Shown one piece after another: positions 2,183-13,536 of a stretch of 13,536 nt of DNA; position 1 is the first letter of the stretch; the number at the start of each line of letters is the position of its first letter. The stretch lies in the IMG/VR virus record IMGVR_UViG_2671180571_000005, positions 1 through 13,536 of that record; one strand, given 5' to 3'. The translations under genes were made by a program, and so were the position numbers. Source of the DNA: a virus (Duplodnaviria > Heunggongvirae > Uroviricota > Caudoviricetes). The notes below the pieces were generated by a model. That model was not told the origin of the DNA and did not search any database. It saw nothing but the letters and a program-made list of their open reading frames with translations.

Positions 2183-2956
2183 CTATTTATTAGTGATTTC
2201 TGCTGGCTTTAACTGCGCGGATAACTGCTCAAGTTTTTGAACTGCCAGTTCAAAATGCGCGGGTAACGCCTTTTCCAGATCAGAGTTAATATCGGTGATG
2301 GGCAAATCACCACACGACATACTCCGCCTACCCCCACGAACAACATCACGCAACAACTCTCGTTCATACGTGCGCATGTTCCCCAATGCCGACTCAGCAG
2401 CCGTCAAAATCCGGCGCAGTTCTGCCGTAATTGCTGGCAAATCATCAACAGTTATGGGGTTCGGGGATGGATTACGACACGCCCGACGCAAAGCTAACCA
2501 TACACCGCTAATCCAGGCATTTCGGTACTGAAAACTTTGTGCTATATCGTTAATCAGCCCTCGCAGATACTCTTTCTGCCTCCAGTTCAACGGCTCTGCT
2601 GCTCGCATTGGCTCAGGCTCGATGTAAACGTACTCTCCATTTTTGCGAATAGAGGGCAAGACTTCGTTCGTTACCCATTTGCGAAACCGCCAAGCTGTTG
2701 TGCCTTGCTTCACCGCGTCACGGCAGCGGAGAATGAGGGTGTAAAGACCTGATTCGCTGATGATATTGGCTTGACCTTGACGGCCTATGTTAAACATAGA
2801 TCGCTCATCTTCATCTAATCTAGCGATAGCTTGTGTGACATTCTGGATGCTTAAAGCATTGCAAATATCATTCGCCACAAACCACGGATCGCCGTTAATC
2901 ATCACTACACGTACCTGATGCTCTTCCTGAAAGGAAAAGACTGCTAACGCGCTCAT
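2183..2956 (-). CDS. Bro-N domain protein, putative antirepressor
   Basis: 257-aa ORF with strong SD AGGAGG 4-5 nt upstream. N-terminus FSFQEEHQVRVVMINGDPWFVANDICNALSI matches the Bro-N / phage antirepressor N-terminal signature (F.F....IRV....G.PWF.A.D....L). Start overlaps the stop of the upstream gene as ATGA. Last gene of an icd-like operon, the position occupied by ant in P1. Confidence 0.7.
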   Translation of the reverse strand: MSALAVFSFQEEHQVRVVMINGDPWFVANDICNALSIQNVTQAIARLDEDERSMFNIGRQGQANIISESGLYTLILRCRDAVKQGTTAWRFRKWVTNEVLPSIRKNGEYVYIEPEPMRAAEPLNWRQKEYLRGLINDIAQSFQYRNAWISGVWLALRRACRNPSPNPITVDDLPAITAELRRILTAAESALGNMRTYERELLRDVVRGGRRSMSCGDLPITDINSDLEKALPAHFELAVQKLEQLSAQLKPAEITNK

Positions 2957-3186
2957 TCAGCCTCCTTATCGCGCAGCAAGTGCGACGAGAGAGACGCAGA
3001 ATATCCCTGTGCTTCATGCGTTAACTCACACGCAATCTGCAGAAGTTTTCCAGCCTCTGAGAGGTAAATCGACGCCTCACAACTGGAGACTGTCCGATGG
3101 GCTGATGATACGAGCGCATAGACCTGAGCCAGACGTTCATCCAACGATTCCAGCAGGCCAACAGTGTTCATTTTTACCTGATTCAT
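2953..3186 (-). CDS. Hypothetical protein (77 aa), middle gene of the icd-like/antirepressor operon
   Basis: ORF with SD GAGGTG 5 nt upstream. ATGA overlap with the icd-like ORF upstream and with the Bro-N gene downstream (translational coupling on both sides). No recognisable motif. Confidence 0.55.
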   Translation of the reverse strand: MNQVKMNTVGLLESLDERLAQVYALVSSAHRTVSSCEASIYLSEAGKLLQIACELTHEAQGYSASLSSHLLRDKEAE

Positions 3187-3347
3187 GCAGCCACCTCGCG
3201 CACCGGAATACGGGCAGATAATACCAGGACAAACCGGCTGGCGAACTGGCGACGAGCTTCCCGTTCAGATGACGCGATAGTGGAAAGATGATGAATGTGG
3301 GACTTTTTGTCTGTGCGAACGACTGCCGCAAATTTGAATTTGAACAT
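3183..3347 (-). CDS. icd: Icd-like host cell division inhibitor (54 aa)
   Basis: Not in the supplied ORF track (below size cutoff). My translation: MFKFKFAAVVRTDKKSHIHHLSTIASSEREARRQFASRFVLVLSARIPVREVAA. The pattern F.F.AV.R.D....EREARR...F.L..AR.PV.EV is what I remember for Icd-like proteins of P1-type immI regions. SD GGAG 8 nt upstream; its stop overlaps the next start (ATGA). The 128-aa track ORF 3137..3523 in another frame is probably spurious. Confidence 0.55.
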   Translation of the reverse strand: MFKFKFAAVVRTDKKSHIHHLSTIASSEREARRQFASRFVLVLSARIPVREVAA

Positions 3348-3402
3348 GGTATGCACTCCGTTTTATTGGTCGTGCTACCACCAGAGTTGCGAATCTCTTT
3401 AT

Positions 3403-3482
3403 TGGTGGTAGCCCAGGCGGGGTTCGCAATACCGGTAAACGAAGAAACCGGCCCGACCGAAGTCAGCCCCACCTGAGCCACC
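3403..3482 (-). ncRNA. Candidate C4/CI/cA-type antisense immunity RNA (tRNA-like, 3' ...ACCACCA)
   Basis: On the minus strand the 5' end GGUGGCUCAGG (3482-3472) pairs with the 3' end CCUGGGCUACC (two G-U pairs), giving an acceptor-like stem ending ACCACCA. Internal UUCG-tetraloop hairpin CUGAC-UUCG-GUCGG and CCGGU-N10-ACCGG stem. Two segments (AUUGCGAA at 3430-3423, GCUACCACCA at 3412-3403) are complementary to repeated targets upstream (3552-3565) and downstream (3374-3395) on the same strand. Ends are approximate; folded by eye. Confidence 0.4.
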
Positions 3483-3513
3483 ATAATTCGGATATGCGCA
3501 GGTCTATACACAC

Positions 3514-3536
3514 AAAAAAACACGCTGGCGCGTGTT
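3514..3536 (-). terminator. Rho-independent terminator-like hairpin in the leader of the icd-like operon
   Basis: Minus strand reads AACACGC-GCCA-GCGUGUU followed by a run of U (plus-strand A-run 3514-3520). Sits between the upstream target repeat and the candidate RNA; could be the regulated attenuator or the terminator of the lipoprotein transcript. Confidence 0.4.
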
Positions 3537-3727
3537 GTGCGCTTCGTTTTGCCAGGATTGCGAAGTCCCGACTGCGGGATTTACCGCAGCGAGGTGACTT
3601 TACCTCCAAAACGACGCACACGTCAATAATTTGCAAAGACATTTTACCCCGTGACCAGTCACGGGGACAGGTGTTTTTATAGTTTGCTTGAACAAACGAT
3701 CAGAACATGAACAATGTTATTGTTCCG

Positions 3728-4540
3728 TTATAAGAAAGCCTCACGCGAACGGAACACCCACTCTAGCTGTACTGGATAAATTTCTCCCGTTTTAATATTT
3801 ATTATGCGCGCGGCTAATAACTCACCCATAAAAACCTGAGTTTTATGGCTCATATCTGACGGGTTAAAAATAGTAGGTGATGTTATATCAATATGATTGC
3901 TGCTTAACCCATTTATCTTTGCTAAATATTCAATTCTAAGGTCTTTTACATTAACATCTTTTGGCATTTGTCCTTTTATATCAATATCTGCCCATATTGT
4001 TTCAGGGTTCCCTTCATTTATTTGTGTACTACCAAAGATAATTTCGGCACCTAAAGTATTTAACACTTCTACATCAGCAGATATTCCAAAAGCATTAGCA
4101 CCAACATAGCTTCCATGCTTTGTTATTTCAGAGGAATCGACATGAAAACCATACCATCCAGACATATCTCGAGATGTTATCACGCTATCACTACCGCTAT
4201 TCTCAGCAAAATCACGGTTAAGATATGTTCCTGAGTATGTGATACTTCTAGGGATAGACAAACCTTGAGATGTTAAAACGTTGTTGTATGGCGCGTATGT
4301 TAATGAGTGAACGACATATCCACGCCATGAACCATCATCTATCTTTGATGCAATAATTCTATTAAATTCCTTACCTGTGAGTATTTTGCTGCTAAAATCA
4401 CCAACAGAGTTGATAGGTACTCTTTTTTCTTTTTCGAATTTATACTCAACGTCCGTTGATGCCTTATTATCATATTGATAAGTGCATCCAGATAATAACA
4501 AGATAGAGAGTAATAAAGCTGTTGTTTTTTTGTTACGCAT
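3728..4540 (-). CDS. Lipoprotein of unknown function (AT-rich moron)
   Basis: 270-aa ORF. N-terminus MRNKKTTALLLSILLLSGC has a basic n-region, hydrophobic core and lipobox L-S-G-C (signal peptidase II type). Local GC about 32-35 percent against about 48-50 percent in repA (hand count of 60-bp samples). AT-rich upstream region 4541-4629. Confidence 0.7.
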   Translation of the reverse strand: MRNKKTTALLLSILLLSGCTYQYDNKASTDVEYKFEKEKRVPINSVGDFSSKILTGKEFNRIIASKIDDGSWRGYVVHSLTYAPYNNVLTSQGLSIPRSITYSGTYLNRDFAENSGSDSVITSRDMSGWYGFHVDSSEITKHGSYVGANAFGISADVEVLNTLGAEIIFGSTQINEGNPETIWADIDIKGQMPKDVNVKDLRIEYLAKINGLSSNHIDITSPTIFNPSDMSHKTQVFMGELLAARIINIKTGEIYPVQLEWVFRSREAFL

Positions 4541-4629
4541 AATATTAACTTAACCTATTTGATTAATAATATGTTATTCCATTAAATAAAATATGCCGAG
4601 AACGGTTTAACTTGAACAGTCATCACTAT

Positions 4630-5037
4630 TCAATCAACTTTTTTAGCATCAGCCATACGCTTCAACCAGTAATCAACAATCGGTTGCTCATCCACAGAAT
4701 GTTTACCAGGTATAACTCGCCAGCTATCTTGCGAAAATCTGCCGTACTTACGCGGGAATAGGCCTTTCTTTATCTCCCGCCATGTACTAGGAAAACCATC
4801 CACAAAAGTACCAATTAACAGGAGAGGGACAAAAATCAGAGCTACAAACCATCGTGCAAGAAAGTGTTCAACAACAACATTTTCACCGTTGTAGTAATAC
4901 GCATACGCATCCAATATGCGAATTTTCCTTACCTTAAAAATAGCCTTATGCTGAGAACGACTTAACTTGATACGAATGTATCCCTTATCCAAAGGGGATT
5001 CGTATTCGTATGATTGAACAGCCATTTTTAACCCCAC
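4630..5037 (-). CDS. Hypothetical membrane protein (135 aa)
   Basis: ORF with one strongly hydrophobic segment (WFVALIFVPLLLIGTFV). Start overlaps the end of the upstream 108-aa gene by 10 bp. No recognisable catalytic motif. Confidence 0.5.
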   Translation of the reverse strand: MGLKMAVQSYEYESPLDKGYIRIKLSRSQHKAIFKVRKIRILDAYAYYYNGENVVVEHFLARWFVALIFVPLLLIGTFVDGFPSTWREIKKGLFPRKYGRFSQDSWRVIPGKHSVDEQPIVDYWLKRMADAKKVD

Positions 5038-5354
5038 TCACCATCAGCAAACAAAGCGTTATACTCTGACAATGGTAGACGGTTGCCCTCGATGTAGAGA
5101 TTCAGTTCATACTTCGTCTCCGGGTTTTCCTTGTCGGCTCGTTCCCAACGCTCAGCAGCCTTACGCGCCAATAATTCCACTGCTTTCAGATAATCCTCCG
5201 TACGGAACCAGCCAAAGATAAGGCCACGATCTGTTACAGCCCAGGCGACCTTTTTTTCTTCCTCCTGGATAGCCCTAATGCGTCGTTCGCATTCATCCCG
5301 GCAGAACTGCAGCTGACGGTAATCAAGTTTGTCCAAAAATGCAGTAGTAGACAT
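5028..5354 (-). CDS. Hypothetical protein (108 aa)
   Basis: ORF with SD GGGGAG about 7 nt upstream of the ATG; tightly packed between the small membrane ORF and the 135-aa gene. Function unknown. Confidence 0.5.
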   Translation of the reverse strand: MSTTAFLDKLDYRQLQFCRDECERRIRAIQEEEKKVAWAVTDRGLIFGWFRTEDYLKAVELLARKAAERWERADKENPETKYELNLYIEGNRLPLSEYNALFADGEWG

Positions 5355-5358
5355 ATTT

Positions 5359-5550
5359 TTACTCCCCGTTCACCGAAAATTCACGATAGAAACGTTTCCA
5401 CATACGATAAGTCTGCGCAAATTGTTCACCACGAAACATCGCCTTCCTGGCCTTCATGTTTTCCTTGTGAGACTTTCGGTCTATGAACCAAAACCATTGC
5501 TGGAACACACAAAGCAAGAGACACAAAGATAATATCCACTCATTACCCAT
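5359..5550 (-). CDS. Small hypothetical membrane protein (63 aa)
   Basis: I place the start at the internal ATG (5550) just upstream of the repA stop rather than the track's 102-aa extension, which overlaps repA by about 125 bp. Product MGNEWILSLCLLLCVFQQWFWFIDRK... has one hydrophobic helix. Weak SD. Fills the gap between repA and the 108-aa gene exactly. Confidence 0.35.
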   Translation of the reverse strand: MGNEWILSLCLLLCVFQQWFWFIDRKSHKENMKARKAMFRGEQFAQTYRMWKRFYREFSVNGE

Positions 5551-8500
5551 AGAAAGCGCCCTGCTCTTCGTAGCTGCATGAGCTATTCCCCGTAATGTAT
5601 TCACGTAACCGCCGCAGCTCATTGCTGGAAAGGTGATCCATGAACTCTGTGAGGTACAGGGATGCAAACGTCATAGCTATGCTGGCTGATGACCATGATG
5701 ACATAGTGGCCAACTCCTCACTGGAAAGCGCACTCATCGCCCAGGACTCAGGTACAGCCACTGGCAACACGGCCAAAGCCTCAGAAATTACTGAATGAGG
5801 GGCGTTTTGAACCTGCTCGTTTGTGGATCGCGTTTTATCATCCATATATATATTGAGATCCAAATCGCGATCCATTTCGATGGCTGTCTTCTCGGCTTTA
5901 CGCGTTTTTAGGGTTAGGCCATCTTTCTGACGCTGAACAAGAATATCCAGCATAAATGCCGCTGATTCAGGCTCAACAAAACGCAAGGTTGGACGCTTAT
6001 CGCCGTCTCTGCCGCGACGTTTACCTGTTTTAAGGCCAAGAGAGTCGCAAATGTTTTTAAACAACGCTTCCGGCACTTTAGGCTTCCCTTTTGGCGTCAT
6101 AAAACCACCAATGTGCAGAACGTTATTCAACAGGTCACGGCGTTCGGCTGTCATGAGGTTATCTCGAGCGAATTTGAGACGCTCCTGAGTCGCCTCGCCG
6201 GTCATAGTCTCAGGGTTGATACCGCAGTCGATAAAGTACTGCCGGAGAGTTGCTGATTTAAGCGCATAGAAACCGCGCGCCCCGACTTCAACAGTAGGAG
6301 TAGCTTTTACCTTGTGATCGATTATTCCAGGGAATTTAGTTTTAAAGACATCATCAGCCTGCTCGCGAGTCATCGCGGTCACTACAAAATATTGCCACTG
6401 TCCCGCCTGACGGTATGCGTAGGTAAAATTGATGGCTGCTTCTTCCCGGTCGTAACGACGAGCTGTTACCTCATCTAAAAGCATTGTTTCATAGCGGCGA
6501 ACTTTGTCTCGAGCACCATCGAAATAGAATTTCAGCGTGCCTTCTTCAACCGGTAGTTTCAGTTCGTTCTCAATATCCCAGCGGACAAGTTTTGCTTGTT
6601 CTTCAAGCGTCAGCGCGCGTTTTTTTAGCAGTTCTTCACGCTCTGATTCTTGTGGAGTTTCTGTATTGAGATGCAGATCCAGTGTCTGTTCCCACACAAT
6701 ATCCCGCGCTTCTTTACGCAGATCTTTACCGATATCATTCGCAGCATAATCGGTGGCCAGCGGCGATACCTTATAACCGTCGCTGTGCATGATGCAGATC
6801 ATGTTGCTGGCGTAGTCGTTACGCGCAGACGCTTCAATTGCGGCTGCTTTAATTTTCATCCTGGTAAAGTCGGTATTGGCCACCCCCATTGATATACGGT
6901 CGCCATCGAAAACGACATCCGTCAGTTCACCGTTCATGCCTGCGGTAGCAAGCAATGCCTGGGCGAATGCTCGTTCTATTTTTTGCGGGTCAGTTTCACG
7001 TTTTGCGCGAGCTTTATCAAAGCCGATAATAAATTCTTTTGCTGTACGGTCGCGGCGTAGCATTTGCACTGCGTCGCTGGGTACAACTTCACCACAGAAC
7101 ATGCCGAAATGACGGTCAAAATGTTTTTGCTCAATCGACACACCGGATGAAATAGACGGGCTATAAATCAGGCCGTCGTATTTTTTGACCATCTTTTTCG
7201 GTTGATTGGTAAATGCTTCAACTTCTGGCTCTGGTTTGTTTTTCTGGTTTACACACAGAAATTTCTTACCAGGAAAATGCATTCTCAGGGTGGCGGTCAC
7301 ATCTTCTGCAAAGGTGGAGCTGTCGGTGGCCAACATGATTTTTTCGCCATTCGATACAGCTTTCACCACCTCGGTCATAATGCGATCTTTTTCTGTATAA
7401 AAAACCCGGATTGGCTCACCTGTTTCGCGGTTGCGAACATCAACAGGTAATTCAATTACGTGGATCTGCAGCCATGCCGGTAAACCTAGTTCTTCACGGC
7501 GTTTCATAGCCAGTTCAGCCAGGTCAACCAGCAGATCGTTCGCATCAGCATCCACCATTATTGGGTGTTGTTCCGTTCTGGCCAGCGCGTCAATTAACGT
7601 ATTGAATACAGCCACCGGGTTTTCCATAGCCCGACCGGAAAGAACGGCACGTAGCCCTTGCGTGGCCTCGTCAAAGCCAAAATAGTCGTGCTGGCGCATC
7701 AATGGTTGCCAGCAGTTTTTAACAATCGAGTTTATGCAGATGGTCAGTTTACTGGCGTATGGAGCCATTTCCTGATAGCCAGGGTCCTGATAGTGCAGGA
7801 TATCGGCTTTTACACCTTTTCCTTCTGTCATCATTTCCCACAGGCCACCAATAAGGGAAACACGGTGAGCAACAGAGATACCACGTTCTGAGCTATGCAT
7901 TAAAGGTCGTAACAATCCAGTAGATTTGCCGGAACCCATACCAGCACGAACGATGACTATCCCCTGTAGTGATTGCACATACTTCAGGACGTCATCGGTC
8001 ATTACCGAAGTTTCAAAACGCTTATAGGTGATATGTTGAGGACGTTTATTGGGATCAGTTATTCGTTCGCTGAATGAGCGCGGAGCCTGGGCAATACGGC
8101 ACTTTTTATTCAGGCGACGGGCAATGTGGTCTTTTACCGTAGCGCGATAGATATTTTCCAGCCCAATTTCACGCAGGACGATGCAGAACATGTTAAATAA
8201 GTCTGACGGACTGTTAGGAACCGGACAGGTTAGCATGCCAATATCCACTGCTCTCAGCAGCTCTTTGGCAAAAGTACGACGGTTATCCCGCTTAATTGTC
8301 TTCAGGCGGTTGAGCGTCAGAGATAGCAAATCAGTGCCAGTTTTCAGGCGGTTTGCAGTTGCAAACAGTTGACGTGCTGTTTCACGAAGTCCACGTAGTT
8401 TGTGCAGGTCGTTGAAGTCACTGCACTCCATTTGCGGATCGTCTTCAAAAGTTGGATAGACGCAGCGGACATCGTTGAATTTCGATAAGATTTCATAGCC

Positions 8501-9538
8501 AGTCCGCAGGCCGGTATTCCCTTTTCCTTCTGTAGCTGATTTCCGGTCATTATCCAGTGCGCAGGTGATTTTTGCCGCCGGGTACATGTTTACCAGTTGT
8601 TCCACAACATGAACCATGTTGTTAGCGGATACAGCGACAACCACAGCGTCAAAGCGTTTATCTTTTTTCGTGGCAAGCCAGATGGATGCACCAGTAGCAA
8701 AACCTTCTGTAACAGCGATGTTTTGCGCCCCTTTCAGCTCACCGATAACAAAGCAGGCACCGACGAAATCGCCGCTGGTTACGGCACTGGTCTGGTATTT
8801 TCCACCTTGTTTGTCGATTCGCTGCCAACCAACAATACGACCATCGTAACGACCGTCCAGGTGAGCCAGAGGGATAGCCATATACGTGGTTGGCCCCCTG
8901 CTCCATTTTGCGCTGTCGTGACTGGTCACGCGACGCACATCACACGAATTAAAAACGTCACGAATACCTTTTTTAATCGCATATGGCCATGAGCCGTCTT
9001 CTGCAGGAGCATGTTCCCAAGCACTGTGGAATGCCAGCCATCCCAGCAAACGTTCATGGTCCATTTGGTTGTTTTTCAGGTCATTAATTCGTTTTTGTTC
9101 TTCACGGCGACGACGTGCTTCGGCCTGACGTTCTATTCTTGCCCGTTCTTCTTCCGGTTGTGCGACCACGGTCGCATTATTCCGTTGTTGCTCACGGCGA
9201 TATTCAGAAAACAGGAAGGAGAAACCGCTCCATGAGCCAGCATCGCTGCCTTTATGGACGAAGTTAATGAACGGGTAATCAATCCCTTTGCTGTGTTCCA
9301 GCCGGGAGTAAATTTCTACGCGTCCTTTGAGGCTCTTTTCGAGAGCTTCTGGGGATGTTTTATTGTATGAAGAGTAACGCTCAACACCCCCGCGAGGGTT
9401 GAGTTGGATGTTGTCGGAACAGGCAGACCAGTTGATACCAGCCATCTGTGCCAGCTCGGTTAGTTCATCCCGTGCTGCTTCAATTAGCGAGAACGGATCG
9501 CTGCCAAAGCGATCCGCATAGAAATCGTTTAATGTCAT
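5543..9538 (-). CDS. repA: Replication protein RepA (multidomain primase-helicase, N15 RepA / P4 alpha type)
   Basis: 1331-aa ORF. Primase-like EG(F/Y)ATG motif (VTEGFATGASIW) in the N-terminal half; Walker A GMGSGKST and Walker B-like FGFDEATQ in the central helicase region. Size and position (between telN/immA and cB) match N15 repA (about 1324 aa, as I recall). Confidence 0.85.
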   Translation of the reverse strand: MTLNDFYADRFGSDPFSLIEAARDELTELAQMAGINWSACSDNIQLNPRGGVERYSSYNKTSPEALEKSLKGRVEIYSRLEHSKGIDYPFINFVHKGSDAGSWSGFSFLFSEYRREQQRNNATVVAQPEEERARIERQAEARRRREEQKRINDLKNNQMDHERLLGWLAFHSAWEHAPAEDGSWPYAIKKGIRDVFNSCDVRRVTSHDSAKWSRGPTTYMAIPLAHLDGRYDGRIVGWQRIDKQGGKYQTSAVTSGDFVGACFVIGELKGAQNIAVTEGFATGASIWLATKKDKRFDAVVVAVSANNMVHVVEQLVNMYPAAKITCALDNDRKSATEGKGNTGLRTGYEILSKFNDVRCVYPTFEDDPQMECSDFNDLHKLRGLRETARQLFATANRLKTGTDLLSLTLNRLKTIKRDNRRTFAKELLRAVDIGMLTCPVPNSPSDLFNMFCIVLREIGLENIYRATVKDHIARRLNKKCRIAQAPRSFSERITDPNKRPQHITYKRFETSVMTDDVLKYVQSLQGIVIVRAGMGSGKSTGLLRPLMHSSERGISVAHRVSLIGGLWEMMTEGKGVKADILHYQDPGYQEMAPYASKLTICINSIVKNCWQPLMRQHDYFGFDEATQGLRAVLSGRAMENPVAVFNTLIDALARTEQHPIMVDADANDLLVDLAELAMKRREELGLPAWLQIHVIELPVDVRNRETGEPIRVFYTEKDRIMTEVVKAVSNGEKIMLATDSSTFAEDVTATLRMHFPGKKFLCVNQKNKPEPEVEAFTNQPKKMVKKYDGLIYSPSISSGVSIEQKHFDRHFGMFCGEVVPSDAVQMLRRDRTAKEFIIGFDKARAKRETDPQKIERAFAQALLATAGMNGELTDVVFDGDRISMGVANTDFTRMKIKAAAIEASARNDYASNMICIMHSDGYKVSPLATDYAANDIGKDLRKEARDIVWEQTLDLHLNTETPQESEREELLKKRALTLEEQAKLVRWDIENELKLPVEEGTLKFYFDGARDKVRRYETMLLDEVTARRYDREEAAINFTYAYRQAGQWQYFVVTAMTREQADDVFKTKFPGIIDHKVKATPTVEVGARGFYALKSATLRQYFIDCGINPETMTGEATQERLKFARDNLMTAERRDLLNNVLHIGGFMTPKGKPKVPEALFKNICDSLGLKTGKRRGRDGDKRPTLRFVEPESAAFMLDILVQRQKDGLTLKTRKAEKTAIEMDRDLDLNIYMDDKTRSTNEQVQNAPHSVISEALAVLPVAVPESWAMSALSSEELATMSSWSSASIAMTFASLYLTEFMDHLSSNELRRLREYITGNSSCSYEEQGAFYG
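5800..5910. other. Candidate intragenic replication origin near the 3' end of repA
   Basis: Three copies of GCGTTTT (5802, 5830, 5902), alternating AT run CATATATATATT (about 5843-5854) and three GATC sites within 47 bp (5826, 5857, 5869), about 300 bp from the repA stop. N15 ori is reported to lie inside the 3' part of repA (from memory). Confidence 0.3.
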
Positions 9539-9589
9539 TTTTTAGCCATTCCATGCGAATTATGTTTTTTCGGGTTGAAAAAATCCGCA

Positions 9590-9652
9590 GGAGCAGCCAC
9601 AATAAACGCATCTTGAATTGACGGAATCCGTCGCGTTATTGTGGCTGCTTCC
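9590..9652. repeat. Long imperfect inverted repeat in the repA upstream region
   Basis: Arm 1 ggagcagccacaataaacgc (9590-9609) and arm 2 gcgttattgtggctgcttcc (9633-9652); perfect 13-bp core gcagccacaataa / ttattgtggctgc; 23-bp spacer. Confidence 0.6.
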
Positions 9653-9660
9653 TGAAAAGG

Positions 9661-9689
9661 ACCCGAGTTTGCCGACTCGGGTTTTTTTT
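9661..9689 (+). terminator. Rho-independent terminator, strongest on + strand (opposite to repA and cB)
   Basis: acccgagt (9661-9668) / actcgggt (9675-9682), 6-nt loop, followed by T8 on the + strand. On the minus strand the tail is only CCUUUUUC, so it may also weakly terminate the cB transcript. Confidence 0.6.
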
Positions 9690-9783
9690 CGTCTTTTTTC
9701 TGCTGCTGTAACCTGAGTCAACCCACAGAACATATGCCCTGCATTAAACCAGATTTACAGCAAACAATAAACCCCGTATTAAG

Positions 9784-10380
9784 TCATCTACCCTCAACCA
9801 TGAATGATTTGATCGTTCCGACTATTTGGTGAACAAATTCAAGATCGCTTTTCCTGAAGATAGCGCGTTGTGAATTTGTTCCGTCCAGATAGTAATTTTC
9901 ATCATCAAAACGGGCCAGGCGCTGGATGGTGATATTTCCTGCAGTATCACGAACCAGAACATCCTCGCCGGGGACCAGTTCCAGCGCAGAATCGACCAGG
10001 AGAAAATCGCCAGGCTGATAGTTTCCCTGCGCCAGATTGCTGATAGTTAACGCATAAACAGTATTGCGCTGGCTGATGAATGGCAGGAATCGCTCAGTAT
10101 TTGGAACCTGTCCTGGCTTCCACTCTTCATCAGGTCCACTTTCAGTTGTGCCAATAACAGGAATGCGATCAGGGTCATATTCTGTCCCATACAGCACCCA
10201 ATGCACTGGCTTGCGTAAGCATTTAGCCAGGGCAATACCTATCTCCAGTGACGGCATTACGTCGCCACGTTCTAAGTTTTGGACGCCTGCAATAGAGATA
10301 TCGACAGCCTCAGCAACTTCTCGCAACGTCAGCTTCATCTCTAAACGGCGTGCTTTCAGTCGTTCGCCTCGTGTTTTCAT
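9784..10380 (-). CDS. cB: Prophage repressor, lambda CI-like (N15 CB-type): N-terminal HTH plus S24 peptidase-like C-terminal domain
   Basis: 198-aa ORF. N-terminal HTH (LTLREVAEAVDISIAGVQNLERG); C-terminal region PGDFLLVD...GEDVLVRD...ITIQRL resembles the LexA/CI S24 fold. Divergent from cro with operator-like palindromes between them. Confidence 0.8.
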   Translation of the reverse strand: MKTRGERLKARRLEMKLTLREVAEAVDISIAGVQNLERGDVMPSLEIGIALAKCLRKPVHWVLYGTEYDPDRIPVIGTTESGPDEEWKPGQVPNTERFLPFISQRNTVYALTISNLAQGNYQPGDFLLVDSALELVPGEDVLVRDTAGNITIQRLARFDDENYYLDGTNSQRAIFRKSDLEFVHQIVGTIKSFMVEGR

Positions 10381-10402
10381 AGCTTAATCATAAATGATCT
10401 TC

Positions 10403-10444
10403 TTATAGCTGGCTATAAAATTTATTTATTATAGCTGGCTTTAA
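10403..10444. promoter_or_regulatory. Two operator-like palindromes in the cB-cro divergent promoter region
   Basis: TTATAGC-TG-GCTATAA (10403-10418) and TTATAGC-TG-GCTTTAA (10429-10444), 26 bp centre to centre, in an AT-rich intergenic region containing TATAAT-like hexamers for both divergent genes. Confidence 0.5.
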
Positions 10445-10471
10445 TTGTTGTTTATTGTTTATAATAACAAC

Positions 10472-10693
10472 ATGAAACCAGAAGAACTTATTCGCCATTT
10501 TGGCAGTGTAGAAAAAGCAGCGGCAGGGGTAGGTGTAACACCCGGAGCTGTTTACCAATGGTTAACCGCTGGAGAGATTCCTTCATTGCGGCAAAGCGAT
10601 ATTGAAGTTCGTACTGCTTATAAGCTGAAGAGTGACTTTACAACTCGGCGGGTAAAGCAGTCGATTAAGGAGAGTCGTAAGCGTGGAGCTTGA
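10472..10693 (+). CDS. cro: Cro-like repressor (73 aa)
   Basis: Small HTH protein (GVGVTPGAVYQWLTAGEIP) divergent from the repressor gene. I use the ATG at 10472; the track's start at 10445 is a TTG inside the operator region. A TATAAT at 10460-10465 ends 7 bp before the ATG, so the mRNA may be leaderless. Confidence 0.65.
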   Translation: MKPEELIRHFGSVEKAAAGVGVTPGAVYQWLTAGEIPSLRQSDIEVRTAYKLKSDFTTRRVKQSIKESRKRGA

Positions 10694-11393
10694 GTATATA
10701 CGCAGCTGCGTCTCTACGGCATTGGCTGATGTTCATTATCGCCAGCGTGGCATTCTGGAGGTCCAGCTTGAGCAGATGCGTCTCGGTAGATCAGGACGGT
10801 TTAACAATAAACCAGTCCGGTCAATCAGTGTAGGGGATGATAACTCATACGAAGTGTCCGTTCCTGCTGAGCCGGTTAGATTCCACCAGGGGAAAACATT
10901 TAAACAATCATCAATGTTGCTCACTGATATTGATTTTCAGAGCGCCAGCTGGCGCAGGGCTATTGGTCAGTTGAATAACGAGGAATCAGCCTGGCTTTAT
11001 TATTGCTACGGATGCAAGCCTGATTACAACAATGATGTGATTGTTTGTCAGTGGTTATGGCTTGATTTTCTGGTTGCTCATTCGGGGGCCGGCTTTAAAA
11101 AAATGAAGGCCTCCACGAAAAAAGCCATGCGGAAATTGATTTATTACGCGGCACAGCAGGTTAAATCAGAACTTACGTGTGCTGAGGCAGTTGATGAGAG
11201 AGAACAGGACAGGCATCTGAGTTTTCTACTGAATATATCTATTGATAGCTGGAGACAAGATTATAAAGAACGCTGGCTTTTAATTAAGTCGCGATGTCTG
11301 AGCTTAAATCGAACTGCATTATTAAATGCGGCGGAGAAGCGCAGTGAAATCATCAAACGCCATCGGGCAGGAAGTGCCATTCTGCCTTTGTAA
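10683..11393 (+). CDS. Putative late-gene antiterminator Q-like protein (positional call)
   Basis: 236-aa ORF with GTG start and SD AAGGAG about 10 nt upstream, overlapping the cro stop. Sits where N15 has Q (cB-cro-Q) and is of similar size. I see no unambiguous Q zinc-finger motif, so the functional call is by synteny only. Confidence 0.4.
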   Translation: MELEYIRSCVSTALADVHYRQRGILEVQLEQMRLGRSGRFNNKPVRSISVGDDNSYEVSVPAEPVRFHQGKTFKQSSMLLTDIDFQSASWRRAIGQLNNEESAWLYYCYGCKPDYNNDVIVCQWLWLDFLVAHSGAGFKKMKASTKKAMRKLIYYAAQQVKSELTCAEAVDEREQDRHLSFLLNISIDSWRQDYKERWLLIKSRCLSLNRTALLNAAEKRSEIIKRHRAGSAILPL

Positions 11394-11646
11394 ACAAGTT
11401 ATGTTCAGGAAACCGTCGAAGCCAGAATTAAGATATTCAGGGGTAAGAAATGAATATGTTATCTGGTGTCCAACTTGTGGTTACAGGACACGACCAGATA
11501 GTAATAAGCAGTCTGTAATTGCCGATTGGTATTTATCAAATCAGCCAGGTAATAAGCATATAGAAAATCTTTGGATTAAGCGTTACTTGGAAATCAGAGA
11601 GGGTGCGACCGTGGTCGCACAAGAAAATGAAAATAACGCCATTTAA
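11326..11646 (+). CDS. Hypothetical small protein with CxC / CxxC cysteine pairs; start uncertain
   Basis: Track ORF of 106 aa overlapping the Q-like gene end. Alternative starts: GTG 11344 (SD GGAG 7 nt upstream) or ATG 11401 (no SD). Contains FCLC and CPTCG, a possible small zinc-binding motif. Confidence 0.4.
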   Translation: MRRRSAVKSSNAIGQEVPFCLCKQVMFRKPSKPELRYSGVRNEYVIWCPTCGYRTRPDSNKQSVIADWYLSNQPGNKHIENLWIKRYLEIREGATVVAQENENNAI

Positions 11647-11656
11647 GCAGGGGCCG

Positions 11657-11830
11657 ATGACGCATGATGAAGCAGAGCGTCTTTCAGATACTTATCGGCG
11701 GCGTGGTAAGAAAGTTCTGGTTGTTCGTTCTGATTTTTTAGGTGATGGATATTGCGTTTATGTTCATTTACCTGAATTAGAAAGAACGCCAAAACCATCC
11801 AGAACATATCAACAGAAAATTTGGGTATAG
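11657..11830 (+). CDS. Hypothetical small protein (57 aa)
   Basis: I use the ATG at 11657 (AGGGG 4 nt upstream, 10 nt after the previous stop) rather than the overlapping track start at 11603. No recognisable motif. Confidence 0.35.
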   Translation: MTHDEAERLSDTYRRRGKKVLVVRSDFLGDGYCVYVHLPELERTPKPSRTYQQKIWV

Positions 11831-11853
11831 ATAAACGTTGAGGAGAATTATTC

Positions 11854-12453
11854 GTGACTAATCAGATTATTTACGACAGGAAACGGTCTGATGTAATGAT
11901 TGACCTTGAAACAATGGGTACTAACACATGTGCTCCAATTGTTTCTATCGGGGCAGTGTTTTTTTCTCCAGAAAGTGAGGAATTAGGTCCTACTTTTTAT
12001 GTGCCAGTGAATCTCAGAAGCTCGATGTTGAATGGTGGTGTCGCCGATGGTGATACCATTTTATGGTGGTTGAAACAGAGCAAGGAAGCCAGAGCCGCAA
12101 TTTGTACTAATGATGCCCTTGATATTAAGGATGCACTTTTTGAATTATCACACTTTATTACTTGCCATGCATGTAATTTAAAAAAATTGAAAGTATGGGG
12201 AAATGGAGCAACTTTCGATAATGTAATTTTACGCGGTGCTTATGAGCGCGTTGGCTTAGTCTGTCCGTGGGAATGTTTTAATGATCAGGATGTTCGAACA
12301 ATCGTTAATCTTGGTCAGTTTATTGGTTTTAATCCTAAAAAAGATATGCCATTTGATGGCGAACGACACAATGCCCTGGCTGATGCTATTCATCAGGCTA
12401 AATATGTATCCGCAATTTTCTCCCGTCTTGTAAAAGGGCAAGGAGAATCGTAA
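11854..12453 (+). CDS. DEDDh-family 3'-5' exonuclease (DnaQ/RNase T-like fold)
   Basis: GTG start with SD AGGAG 8 nt upstream. Exo I motif MIDLETMG (D-x-E), Exo II motif GNGATFDNVIL, Exo III motif HNALADAIH (H-x4-D). Confidence 0.7.
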   Translation: MTNQIIYDRKRSDVMIDLETMGTNTCAPIVSIGAVFFSPESEELGPTFYVPVNLRSSMLNGGVADGDTILWWLKQSKEARAAICTNDALDIKDALFELSHFITCHACNLKKLKVWGNGATFDNVILRGAYERVGLVCPWECFNDQDVRTIVNLGQFIGFNPKKDMPFDGERHNALADAIHQAKYVSAIFSRLVKGQGES

Positions 12454-12872
12454 TGGCAAAGGCTTTTACACCAGAACAGAGAGAAGAACTGAATAAACAA
12501 ATTGTGGAACTCGTGCGCCTGAATGGACGAGGAACGGTTAGGCAACTTGCGGATGAAACTGGTATTAGCCGGTGTGCTGTTAGTCGTTTATCAAGAGAGC
12601 TTGCTGCCAGTGGTGATTTGTATATCTCTGGCTCCGGGATATTTCTGTCTGCACAAGCGCGCAAGGACTGGCAAAACGCCCGCAAAAAGCTATCAAGAGT
12701 AAAGCCGAAGAAATCGGTAGTGGTTGATCCAGACCTTATCTGGTCATTACCTGACGGAGAAATACGTCGTTACGACAGGCGCTTGAACATGATTTGTCAC
12801 GATTGCCGGAAGAGCGAAGTTATGCAGCGTGTGCTGGCGTTTTATCAGGGAAATTTTCAGGAGGTGGCGTAG
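12453..12872 (+). CDS. HTH DNA-binding protein (139 aa)
   Basis: ATG overlaps the exonuclease stop (TAATG); SD AAGGAG upstream. N-terminal helix-turn-helix-like segment TVRQLADETGISRCAVSRLSRELAASG; basic central region. Confidence 0.6.
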   Translation: MAKAFTPEQREELNKQIVELVRLNGRGTVRQLADETGISRCAVSRLSRELAASGDLYISGSGIFLSAQARKDWQNARKKLSRVKPKKSVVVDPDLIWSLPDGEIRRYDRRLNMICHDCRKSEVMQRVLAFYQGNFQEVA

Positions 12873-13162
12873 TGAATATCGACACGACAATAACGCTCGA
12901 TACGCTCCTAAATTCCGGCCTGGCACTTCTCGGTTGGCTTTACATCATGTCCCGTACATGGCGATGGCTGGGTTCCATTTTCCTGAAACAGTGGAAAAAA
13001 CGGCGCAAACAGGAACTACGCCAGAAGGCATTAGAAGCGTTCTATGACGCATTTGAACTTAGCAGCATTGAATCTGGCACAACAGCCAGGATAGCGACAA
13101 AAGGCGACCTGATGATAGTGATGTTCCGACAGGAGAGAGCAGAGAAAGGGGAATCAGCATGA
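12872..13162 (+). CDS. Small membrane protein (96 aa from GTG)
   Basis: Track ORF 12794..13162. I place the start at GTG 12872, which overlaps the upstream TAG (TAGTG) and has SD AGGAGG 7 nt upstream. One hydrophobic helix LLNSGLALLGWLYIM followed by a basic stretch KQWKKRRKQ. Confidence 0.45.
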   Translation: MNIDTTITLDTLLNSGLALLGWLYIMSRTWRWLGSIFLKQWKKRRKQELRQKALEAFYDAFELSSIESGTTARIATKGDLMIVMFRQERAEKGESA

Positions 13163-13536
13163 AATTTTACAAATTTTCTGAGTTGGTGAATCGCATTTTG
13201 TCCAACAACCACAGCCATCGTCGCGATATGGATGTAACAATCGTTGTTCATTCGCCTGGCAGCATTGGTTCAACACCTTCAGTTGAGGTTCAGTCAATTC
13301 ACGCTGGTTTTGATTGGGATTCCGGGAAAGTGCTTATTTTCCCATCACAGCCACTGACCACGCTAACACCAGAACAGATTACTGATATCACTGATAGTGT
13401 GCGCAAAGGTCAGTCTTGGCACGCATATCAGGAATATAAAAATCATAAAGAGCAGTTGGAAAAATTGTCGATTGAGTTGGAATCAGCCAAAAATCACATA
13501 GCAGAACTGGAAGCCAAACCTGTAAGCCAAACTTAC
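13159..13536 (+). CDS. Hypothetical protein, 3'-truncated by the window end
   Basis: ATG at 13159 overlaps the previous stop (ATGA); open to the last base of the window (126 codons, no stop). Not in the track because incomplete. The last part looks coiled-coil-like (EQLEKLSIELESAKNHIAELEAK). Confidence 0.5.
   Translation, partial: MKFYKFSELVNRILSNNHSHRRDMDVTIVVHSPGSIGSTPSVEVQSIHAGFDWDSGKVLIFPSQPLTTLTPEQITDITDSVRKGQSWHAYQEYKNHKEQLEKLSIELESAKNHIAELEAKPVSQTY

Follow-up and report, generated by a model that had tools for sequence, protein, structure and literature searches.

The closest described counterpart of the repressor considered here is CB (gp38) of the telomere phage N15. No proteolysis of N15 CB followed SOS induction with ciprofloxacin in Fig. 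1b of Silpe 2023 (PMC10432266), and the RecA site, serine and lysine are missing from CB of both N15 and phiKO2 (Hammerl 2016, PMC4997575). N15 AntC is described as a LexA-controlled antirepressor in PMC3121763, and as counteracting CB from an antC locus separate from immA and immB in PMC4488713, both of which cite Mardanov & Ravin 2007. This arrangement is like that of coliphage 186, with its CI and Tum proteins, and of Salmonella Gifsy, which likewise pair a non-cleavable repressor with a small antirepressor expressed from a LexA-repressed promoter (PMC3121763). However, the antirepressor proteins are unrelated, and Gifsy-type repressors have no S24-like domain, whereas CB has a dead one. 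At one step of the screen in PMC10432266, 210 of the 271 phages eliminated, a majority, had repA-telN loci similar to that of N15.

The window analysed in this work is the whole of a 13,536-nucleotide stretch of an IMG/VR virus record, and forms the central part, devoted to regulation and replication, of an N15-type linear plasmid-prophage, or telomere phage. Domain scans and megablast identified an N15-like gene set across its whole length, comprising protelomerase, immA, RepA, cB, cro and Q. The protelomerase (128-2011) has the TelK_N, muzzle, catalytic and stirrup domains, and is followed by the immA operon and a RepA-like open reading frame of 1331 aa (5543-9538). Divergent from cB is cro (10472..10693, + strand; Pfam P22_Cro, 78.9 bits), for which the ATG at 10472 is the probable start, although the ORF lister uses a TTG at 10445; relatives carry a 73-aa gene call. 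This is followed by a Q-type late antiterminator (10683..11393, + strand; Pfam Phage_antiter_Q, 283.8 bits). Identity of the window to the Escherichia phages PhiR46_1 and YDC107_1 was 98%, compared with about 77% for N15, phiKO2 and the Klebsiella and Enterobacter relatives of both. Of complete E. coli replicons, plasmids of 46-50 kb matched best (97-98% identity), with the leading one recorded as linear; no complete E. coli genome or phage was 100% identical, and the best of them reached 97.7-98.6%.

The repressor gene, cB, runs on the - strand from an ATG at 10380 to a stop at 9784 (9784..10380), and encodes a 198-aa primary-immunity prophage repressor. It occupies the position of cB in the immB region of N15-type elements, lying upstream of repA and transcribed divergently from cro-Q, and its genome also encodes a protelomerase. 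Its product is of equal length to N15 gp38, annotated as "apparent prophage repressor; CB", and aligns with it ungapped over all 198 aa at 78% identity (E 3e-121). It is also a very common allele: 4098 blocks of the assembly index list an identical protein. The N-terminal domain is an HTH_3 DNA-binding domain (residues 8-61; 10198..10359, - strand; PF01381, 43.4 bits), with PDB sequence matches to DdrO, P22 C2 and the 434 Cro and repressor proteins; this XRE/434/P22 type differs from the winged helix of LexA. The C-terminal domain, spanning about residues 72-190 (9811..10167, - strand), was assigned by hhalign and Foldseek to the S24/LexA fold as a pseudo-peptidase. We are confident that this gene encodes the CB repressor of an N15-type telomere phage-plasmid, which would be inactivated by antirepressor, with the prophage induced by the SOS response through LexA and AntC. 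This biology, including the non-cleavable CB, is already published for N15 and phiKO2, and the initial annotation's proposal of a non-cleavable, antirepressor-inactivated repressor is a correct rediscovery in a very common allele, in keeping with both the missing residues described below and the N15 orthologue in PMC10432266. Beyond correct annotation, this matters little. Yet automatic labels such as "cI", "LexA family transcriptional regulator" and "S24 family peptidase" wrongly imply RecA-mediated self-cleavage of CB, and the right model, combining a dead S24 domain with a LexA-controlled AntC and an RNA-controlled immA, bears on predictions of induction by antibiotics. It is relevant both to the very common phage-plasmids of E. 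coli, Klebsiella and Enterobacter, and to the linear cloning vectors derived from N15.

The proposed switch has four components. Firstly, the C-terminal domain of CB would provide only oligomerisation and a docking surface, rather than RecA-stimulated self-cleavage. Secondly, small antirepressors of a single family (phrog_6301) would inactivate CB stoichiometrically. Thirdly, one of these would be the gp31-type protein of immA, expressed within the window from behind a C4-type antisense RNA, and the other its LexA-repressed paralogue AntC, encoded outside the window. Fourthly, DNA damage would generate RecA*, leading to LexA cleavage, transcription of antC, binding of AntC to CB and induction of the prophage, with immA constituting a second, probably SOS-independent, route to CB inactivation. 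The experimental basis for the RecA*/LexA/AntC route comes from N15 only, and its operation in the window allele is suggested by orthology and a conserved LexA box. The two CB proteins differ at 22% of positions, and the behaviour of N15 CB is presumed to carry over. The initial annotation, which presented induction as independent of RecA-mediated cleavage, was too strong on this point: with AntC under LexA control, induction would still depend on RecA, through RecA-stimulated cleavage of LexA.

The evidence for the LexA-controlled component comes from the relatives of the window. Within the window, the motif CTGT-N8-ACAG had no exact match and four one-mismatch matches, against 4.25 expected, and a scan with the 20-mer LexA consensus reached at best 14/20, with only one CTG/CAG core, a score equalled by 57% of shuffles. 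One of the one-mismatch sites, between repA and cB (9713-9728, CTGAGTCAACCCACAG), was dismissed for its G+C-rich spacer and its chance-level score. Nor did tblastn with AntC homologues detect a second copy in the window. The initial annotation had likewise found no LexA box near the antirepressor operon or the genes after Q, and this absence extends to the whole window. It is explained by the contig L011, which is collinear with window positions 2784-13482 at 98.3% identity, and in which the box and antC lie about 1.4 kb past the window's 3' end. Each of six contigs read with an identical CB contained exactly one perfect LexA box, the lexA and umuD promoters scoring as positive controls. In five of the six, an AntC homologue of 67-72 aa followed the box immediately, and a Gp49/HTH gene pair adjoined this gene, which is also the N15 arrangement. 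The box in these five, CTGTAATTTTATACAG, is also the single perfect box in PhiR46_1 and pCAVP367-48, where the AntC homologue directly downstream is 67 aa long and 56% identical to an N15 open reading frame. That frame, unannotated and of 75-79 aa, is directly downstream of the single perfect LexA box (CTGTGTTTATATACAG) in the N15 right arm, and we infer it to be antC. The LexA-box/antC arrangement of the window's close relatives is therefore like that of N15, and the genome from which the window derives probably has both elements, given its 97-98% identity to these collinear phages and plasmids. The sixth contig with an identical CB, L013 (122 kb), lacked the antC arrangement: at 1323-1746 its box is just upstream of a 129-aa Peptidase_S24 (UmuD-like) gene with host-like neighbours, including a tRNA synthetase and a ParA-family protein. 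L013 is possibly a chimera or an integrated form.

The antirepressor operon within the window was nominated by the initial annotation (as 2183-3347) as the locus on which induction would depend. This operon, 2183-3356, is the orthologue of the icd-antA-antB locus, immA, of N15, and is not an SOS sensor. Its first gene is icd-like (3183..3356, - strand), its product matching the last 57 aa of N15 gp32 at 95% identity, and is followed by an antA-type gene (2953..3186, - strand) for a 77-aa protein of the small antirepressor family, 63% identical to N15 gp31 and matching the "anti-repressor" families phrog_6301 and phrog_10889. The third is antB (2183..2956, - strand), encoding a 257-aa Bro-N protein (Pfam Bro-N, 74.7 bits) 73% identical to N15 gp30. 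The 77-aa protein shares both phrog families with the AntC homologue of PhiR46_1, to which it is 31% identical (E 7e-8), and on this similarity the gp31-type and AntC proteins are paralogues. Upstream of the operon, at the position of N15 cA, is a full-length C4-family antisense RNA (3401..3488, - strand; Rfam RF01695, 82.3 bits against a gathering score of 45, E 2.6e-15), where the window DNA also matches record U63086 of N15 cA; this RNA would control the immA operon. An isrK-like Hfq-binding RNA adjoins it at 3515-3590 (- strand), scoring 52.8 bits, barely over the gathering score of 50, and the open reading frames listed across 3401-3590 are probably spurious. In placing a C4-family RNA ahead of icd and the antirepressor genes, immA is like immI of P1 and P7 (c4 RNA-icd-ant), although the target of immA would be the CI-like CB rather than P1 C1, and a LexA-controlled paralogue, AntC, would be found elsewhere in the genome.

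It could be argued that immA is itself the induction trigger, inactivating the non-cleavable CB independently of RecA. The operon does have, besides its Bro-N gene, one for a gp31-type protein of the small antirepressor family, and N15 immA is an anti-immunity system that includes an antirepressor gene, as cited in PMC4488713 and PMC10612081. However, we consider this improbable. No LexA box occurs in the vicinity of immA, which is placed behind the full-length C4 RNA, a control element of the P1/N15 type, and both PMC3121763 and PMC4488713 attribute the induction of N15 by the SOS response to AntC, whose gene lies at a different locus. Furthermore, the Bro-N gene, which encodes 257 aa in the window, survives only as a 54-aa remnant in PhiR46_1 and three contigs with an identical CB (L003 2150-2314, L009, L010, L013), and hence at least antB seems dispensable for the immunity circuit. 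As in N15, immA is a P1/N15-type anti-immunity module controlled by RNA, not by the SOS response, and the SOS-responsive function is better ascribed to LexA-controlled AntC.

The antirepressors would be required because CB should not be able to inactivate itself. The initial annotation had noted, from an alignment made by eye, that the core of the C-terminal domain was retained while its catalytic residues were not, and software alignment to S24 proteins upheld each of these observations. The motifs QPGDFLLVD (residues 122-130), PGEDVLV (137-143) and ITIQRL (150-155) are all present, representing the PGDxhhVD and GxxhhV core and the region of the catalytic lysine, but no G-x-S-M motif occurs in the window CB, and no Ala-Gly dipeptide in its linker (residues 66-105). 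From 63 CB homologues, the full-length sequences were aligned, and the same catalytic columns were recovered for CB by hhalign, by MAFFT L-INS-i with all homologues and three references, and by hmmalign. At the scissile bond of LexA (Ala84-Gly85) and lambda CI (Ala111-Gly112), CB has Ser81-Gly82 (10135..10140, - strand; codons agt/gga); at the catalytic serine (LexA Ser119, lambda Ser149) it has Ala117 (10030..10032, - strand; gcg), within the local sequence S114-N-L-A-Q118; and at the catalytic lysine (LexA Lys156, lambda Lys192) it has Gln153 (9922..9924, - strand; cag). These codons were checked directly in the raw sequence. Glutamine at the lysine position, and the lack of both the serine and Ala-Gly, are shared with CB of N15 and phiKO2, whereas the alanine at the serine position distinguishes the window CB from N15-type alleles with isoleucine or valine, and the P1 residue of its vestigial site is serine rather than the threonine of N15.

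The register of this alignment is fixed by the relative P0054, which is 42% identical to CB and retains NTQAGPD, RVVGDSMKG and VMVKRLAR in its cleavage-site, serine and lysine columns, and which has in common with E. coli LexA, lambda CI and UmuD the invariant Gly85, Gly117, Ser119, Met120 and Lys156. An hhalign comparison of the CB family with LexA, lambda CI and UmuD, from which the bridging P0054 was omitted, gave a probability of 75% and an E-value of 2.5e-5. This probability is moderate and the Pfam S24 match is below threshold; the register rests largely on the P0054 bridge and the match of the fold. With the catalytic dyad and the Ala-Gly site both missing, CB should not autocleave, and would need an antirepressor for its inactivation; judged by these residues, the window CB is almost certainly non-cleavable.

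Cleavage by other residues would require, for instance, Ser114 with Arg154 or another base to act at Ser81-Gly82. UmuD cleaves at Cys-Gly, and hence an alanine at P1 is not strictly required; moreover Gly82 is invariant in the family, and Ser114 sits just three residues ahead of the canonical position. Nevertheless, Ser114 was rejected as an alternative nucleophile, being unconserved (Gly in N15 CB, and Gly, Glu, Asp or Asn in most of the family) and paired in the alignment with the non-catalytic Ser116 of LexA, and the base position of CB has no lysine. Together with the lack of in vivo proteolysis of the N15 orthologue on SOS induction reported in PMC10432266, this makes non-canonical autocleavage very improbable, and a CB that depends on its antirepressors remains the preferred reading.

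The C-terminal domain of CB is a true homologue of the S24/LexA fold that lacks the catalytic residues, and is hence a pseudo-peptidase. An AF2 model computed from the family alignment (mean pLDDT 87.7, pTM 0.74) had as its top Foldseek matches in the PDB lambda repressor (3bdn, 8gmu, 2ho0), LexA (3k2z, 1jhe, 8trg) and UmuD' (1umu), all with probability 1.00, and these matches mark the domain as a genuine member of this fold. CB is thus like lambda CI, LexA and UmuD in its C-terminal beta fold, in its PGD...VD and GE/GD..V core strands, and in the two-domain architecture of the repressors, but unlike them it has neither the Ser-Lys dyad nor Ala-Gly, and RecA-stimulated self-cleavage is not expected. 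It is scarcely credible that the domain is no S24 homologue, such that its missing catalytic residues would be meaningless, since the sub-threshold Peptidase_S24 match (PF00717, residues 99-171; 21.3 bits, just under the Pfam cut-off of 23.3) and the phmmer search of the PDB with the single CB sequence, in which only the HTH was significant and UmuD had an E-value of about 0.7, are outweighed by the hhalign and Foldseek results, by PF00717 matches precomputed for many CB homologues of 75-79% identity, by the canonical motifs of P0054, and by the hundreds of canonical GDSM/VK proteins that the CB family profile pulls in through the C-terminal domain alone. The UmuD matches of that profile in the PDB reached an E-value of only about 0.02.

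A family-profile search of 1.84 billion cluster representatives, with the catalytic columns tabulated, set this loss within the history of the family. Among the 14 closest 50%-cluster representatives (E <= 1.6e-29), only two had both serine and lysine, these also having Ala-Gly; a further four had lysine alone, and seven had neither. By contrast, 73 of the 96 more distant representatives retained both residues. Going by this distribution, loss of the dyad is clade-wide and derived. Close relatives include the fully intact P0054 and P0076, with A-G, GDS and VK, and the lysine-only P0067, P0069, P0070 and P0072, whereas N15, phiKO2 and the window CB represent fully dead forms. Rather speculatively, and with the odds against it, the clade could preserve a stepwise series leading from an autocleaving CI-like repressor to an antirepressor-controlled pseudo-peptidase. 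Were the antirepressor to take the place of the cleavage-site strand in the vestigial cleft, the dead protease domain would have found a new use as its receptor. The locus of P0054 itself (L015, 10001-10606) is syntenic, in the order cB-cro-Q-...-lysis, and encodes a repressor with Ala-Gly, GDSM and VKRL. A LexA box and AntA/AntC homologues were both absent from the 10 kb of L015 that extends from cro as far as the lysis genes. It is possibly an autocleaving cousin of the N15-type switch, and, as a single case, it fits an either/or relation between autocleavage and a LexA-controlled antirepressor.

The DNA sites on which CB would act are also recognisable. The interval between cB and cro contains a 16-bp near-palindromic operator, TTATAGCTGGCTATAA (10403..10418), the same 16-mer being present in the annotated CB operator region of N15, and a repeat search identified a second copy, TTATAGCTGGCTTTAA (10429..10444). 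Allowing up to three mismatches, a search for the operator returned four matches where 0.10 were expected, each of the two sites being counted once per strand. From the match to the annotated N15 sequence, the N-terminal XRE helix-turn-helix of CB is predicted to bind at 10403-10418 and 10429-10444. At this threshold the window has two clear operators between cB and cro, whereas three OR sites are described for N15 and phiKO2 (PMC4997575), and no OL operators were found upstream of repA with the OR sequence at up to three mismatches. The interval that separates the start of repA from the stop of cB contains a perfect 14-nt inverted repeat (9592-9605 and 9636-9649) and, on the + strand, a terminator-like hairpin with a T-run (9655-9688), at the position of the "putative rho-independent terminator" of N15. 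The OL operators that are annotated beside this terminator in N15 have no recognisable conservation in 9592-9688 of the window.

Other parts of the window vary between relatives. A 270-aa open reading frame between immA and repA (3728-4540, - strand) has a lipoprotein-type signal, with a weak LPAM_1 match and a lipobox-like LLSGC, and no other family match. It is also found in the contigs L011 and L012, but is missing from PhiR46_1, which has a "Spackle exclusion protein" gene in its place, and the interval looks like a variable cargo slot. The early-right genes that follow Q (11854-13536, + strand) include a 3'-5' exonuclease (Rv2179c-like), DUF977 and DUF4752. Mosaic exchange is indicated by the final 660 bases of the window, which match unrelated E. 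coli phages, P1-like and others (D6, Ro157c2YLVW and CMS-2020a), at 92-96% identity.
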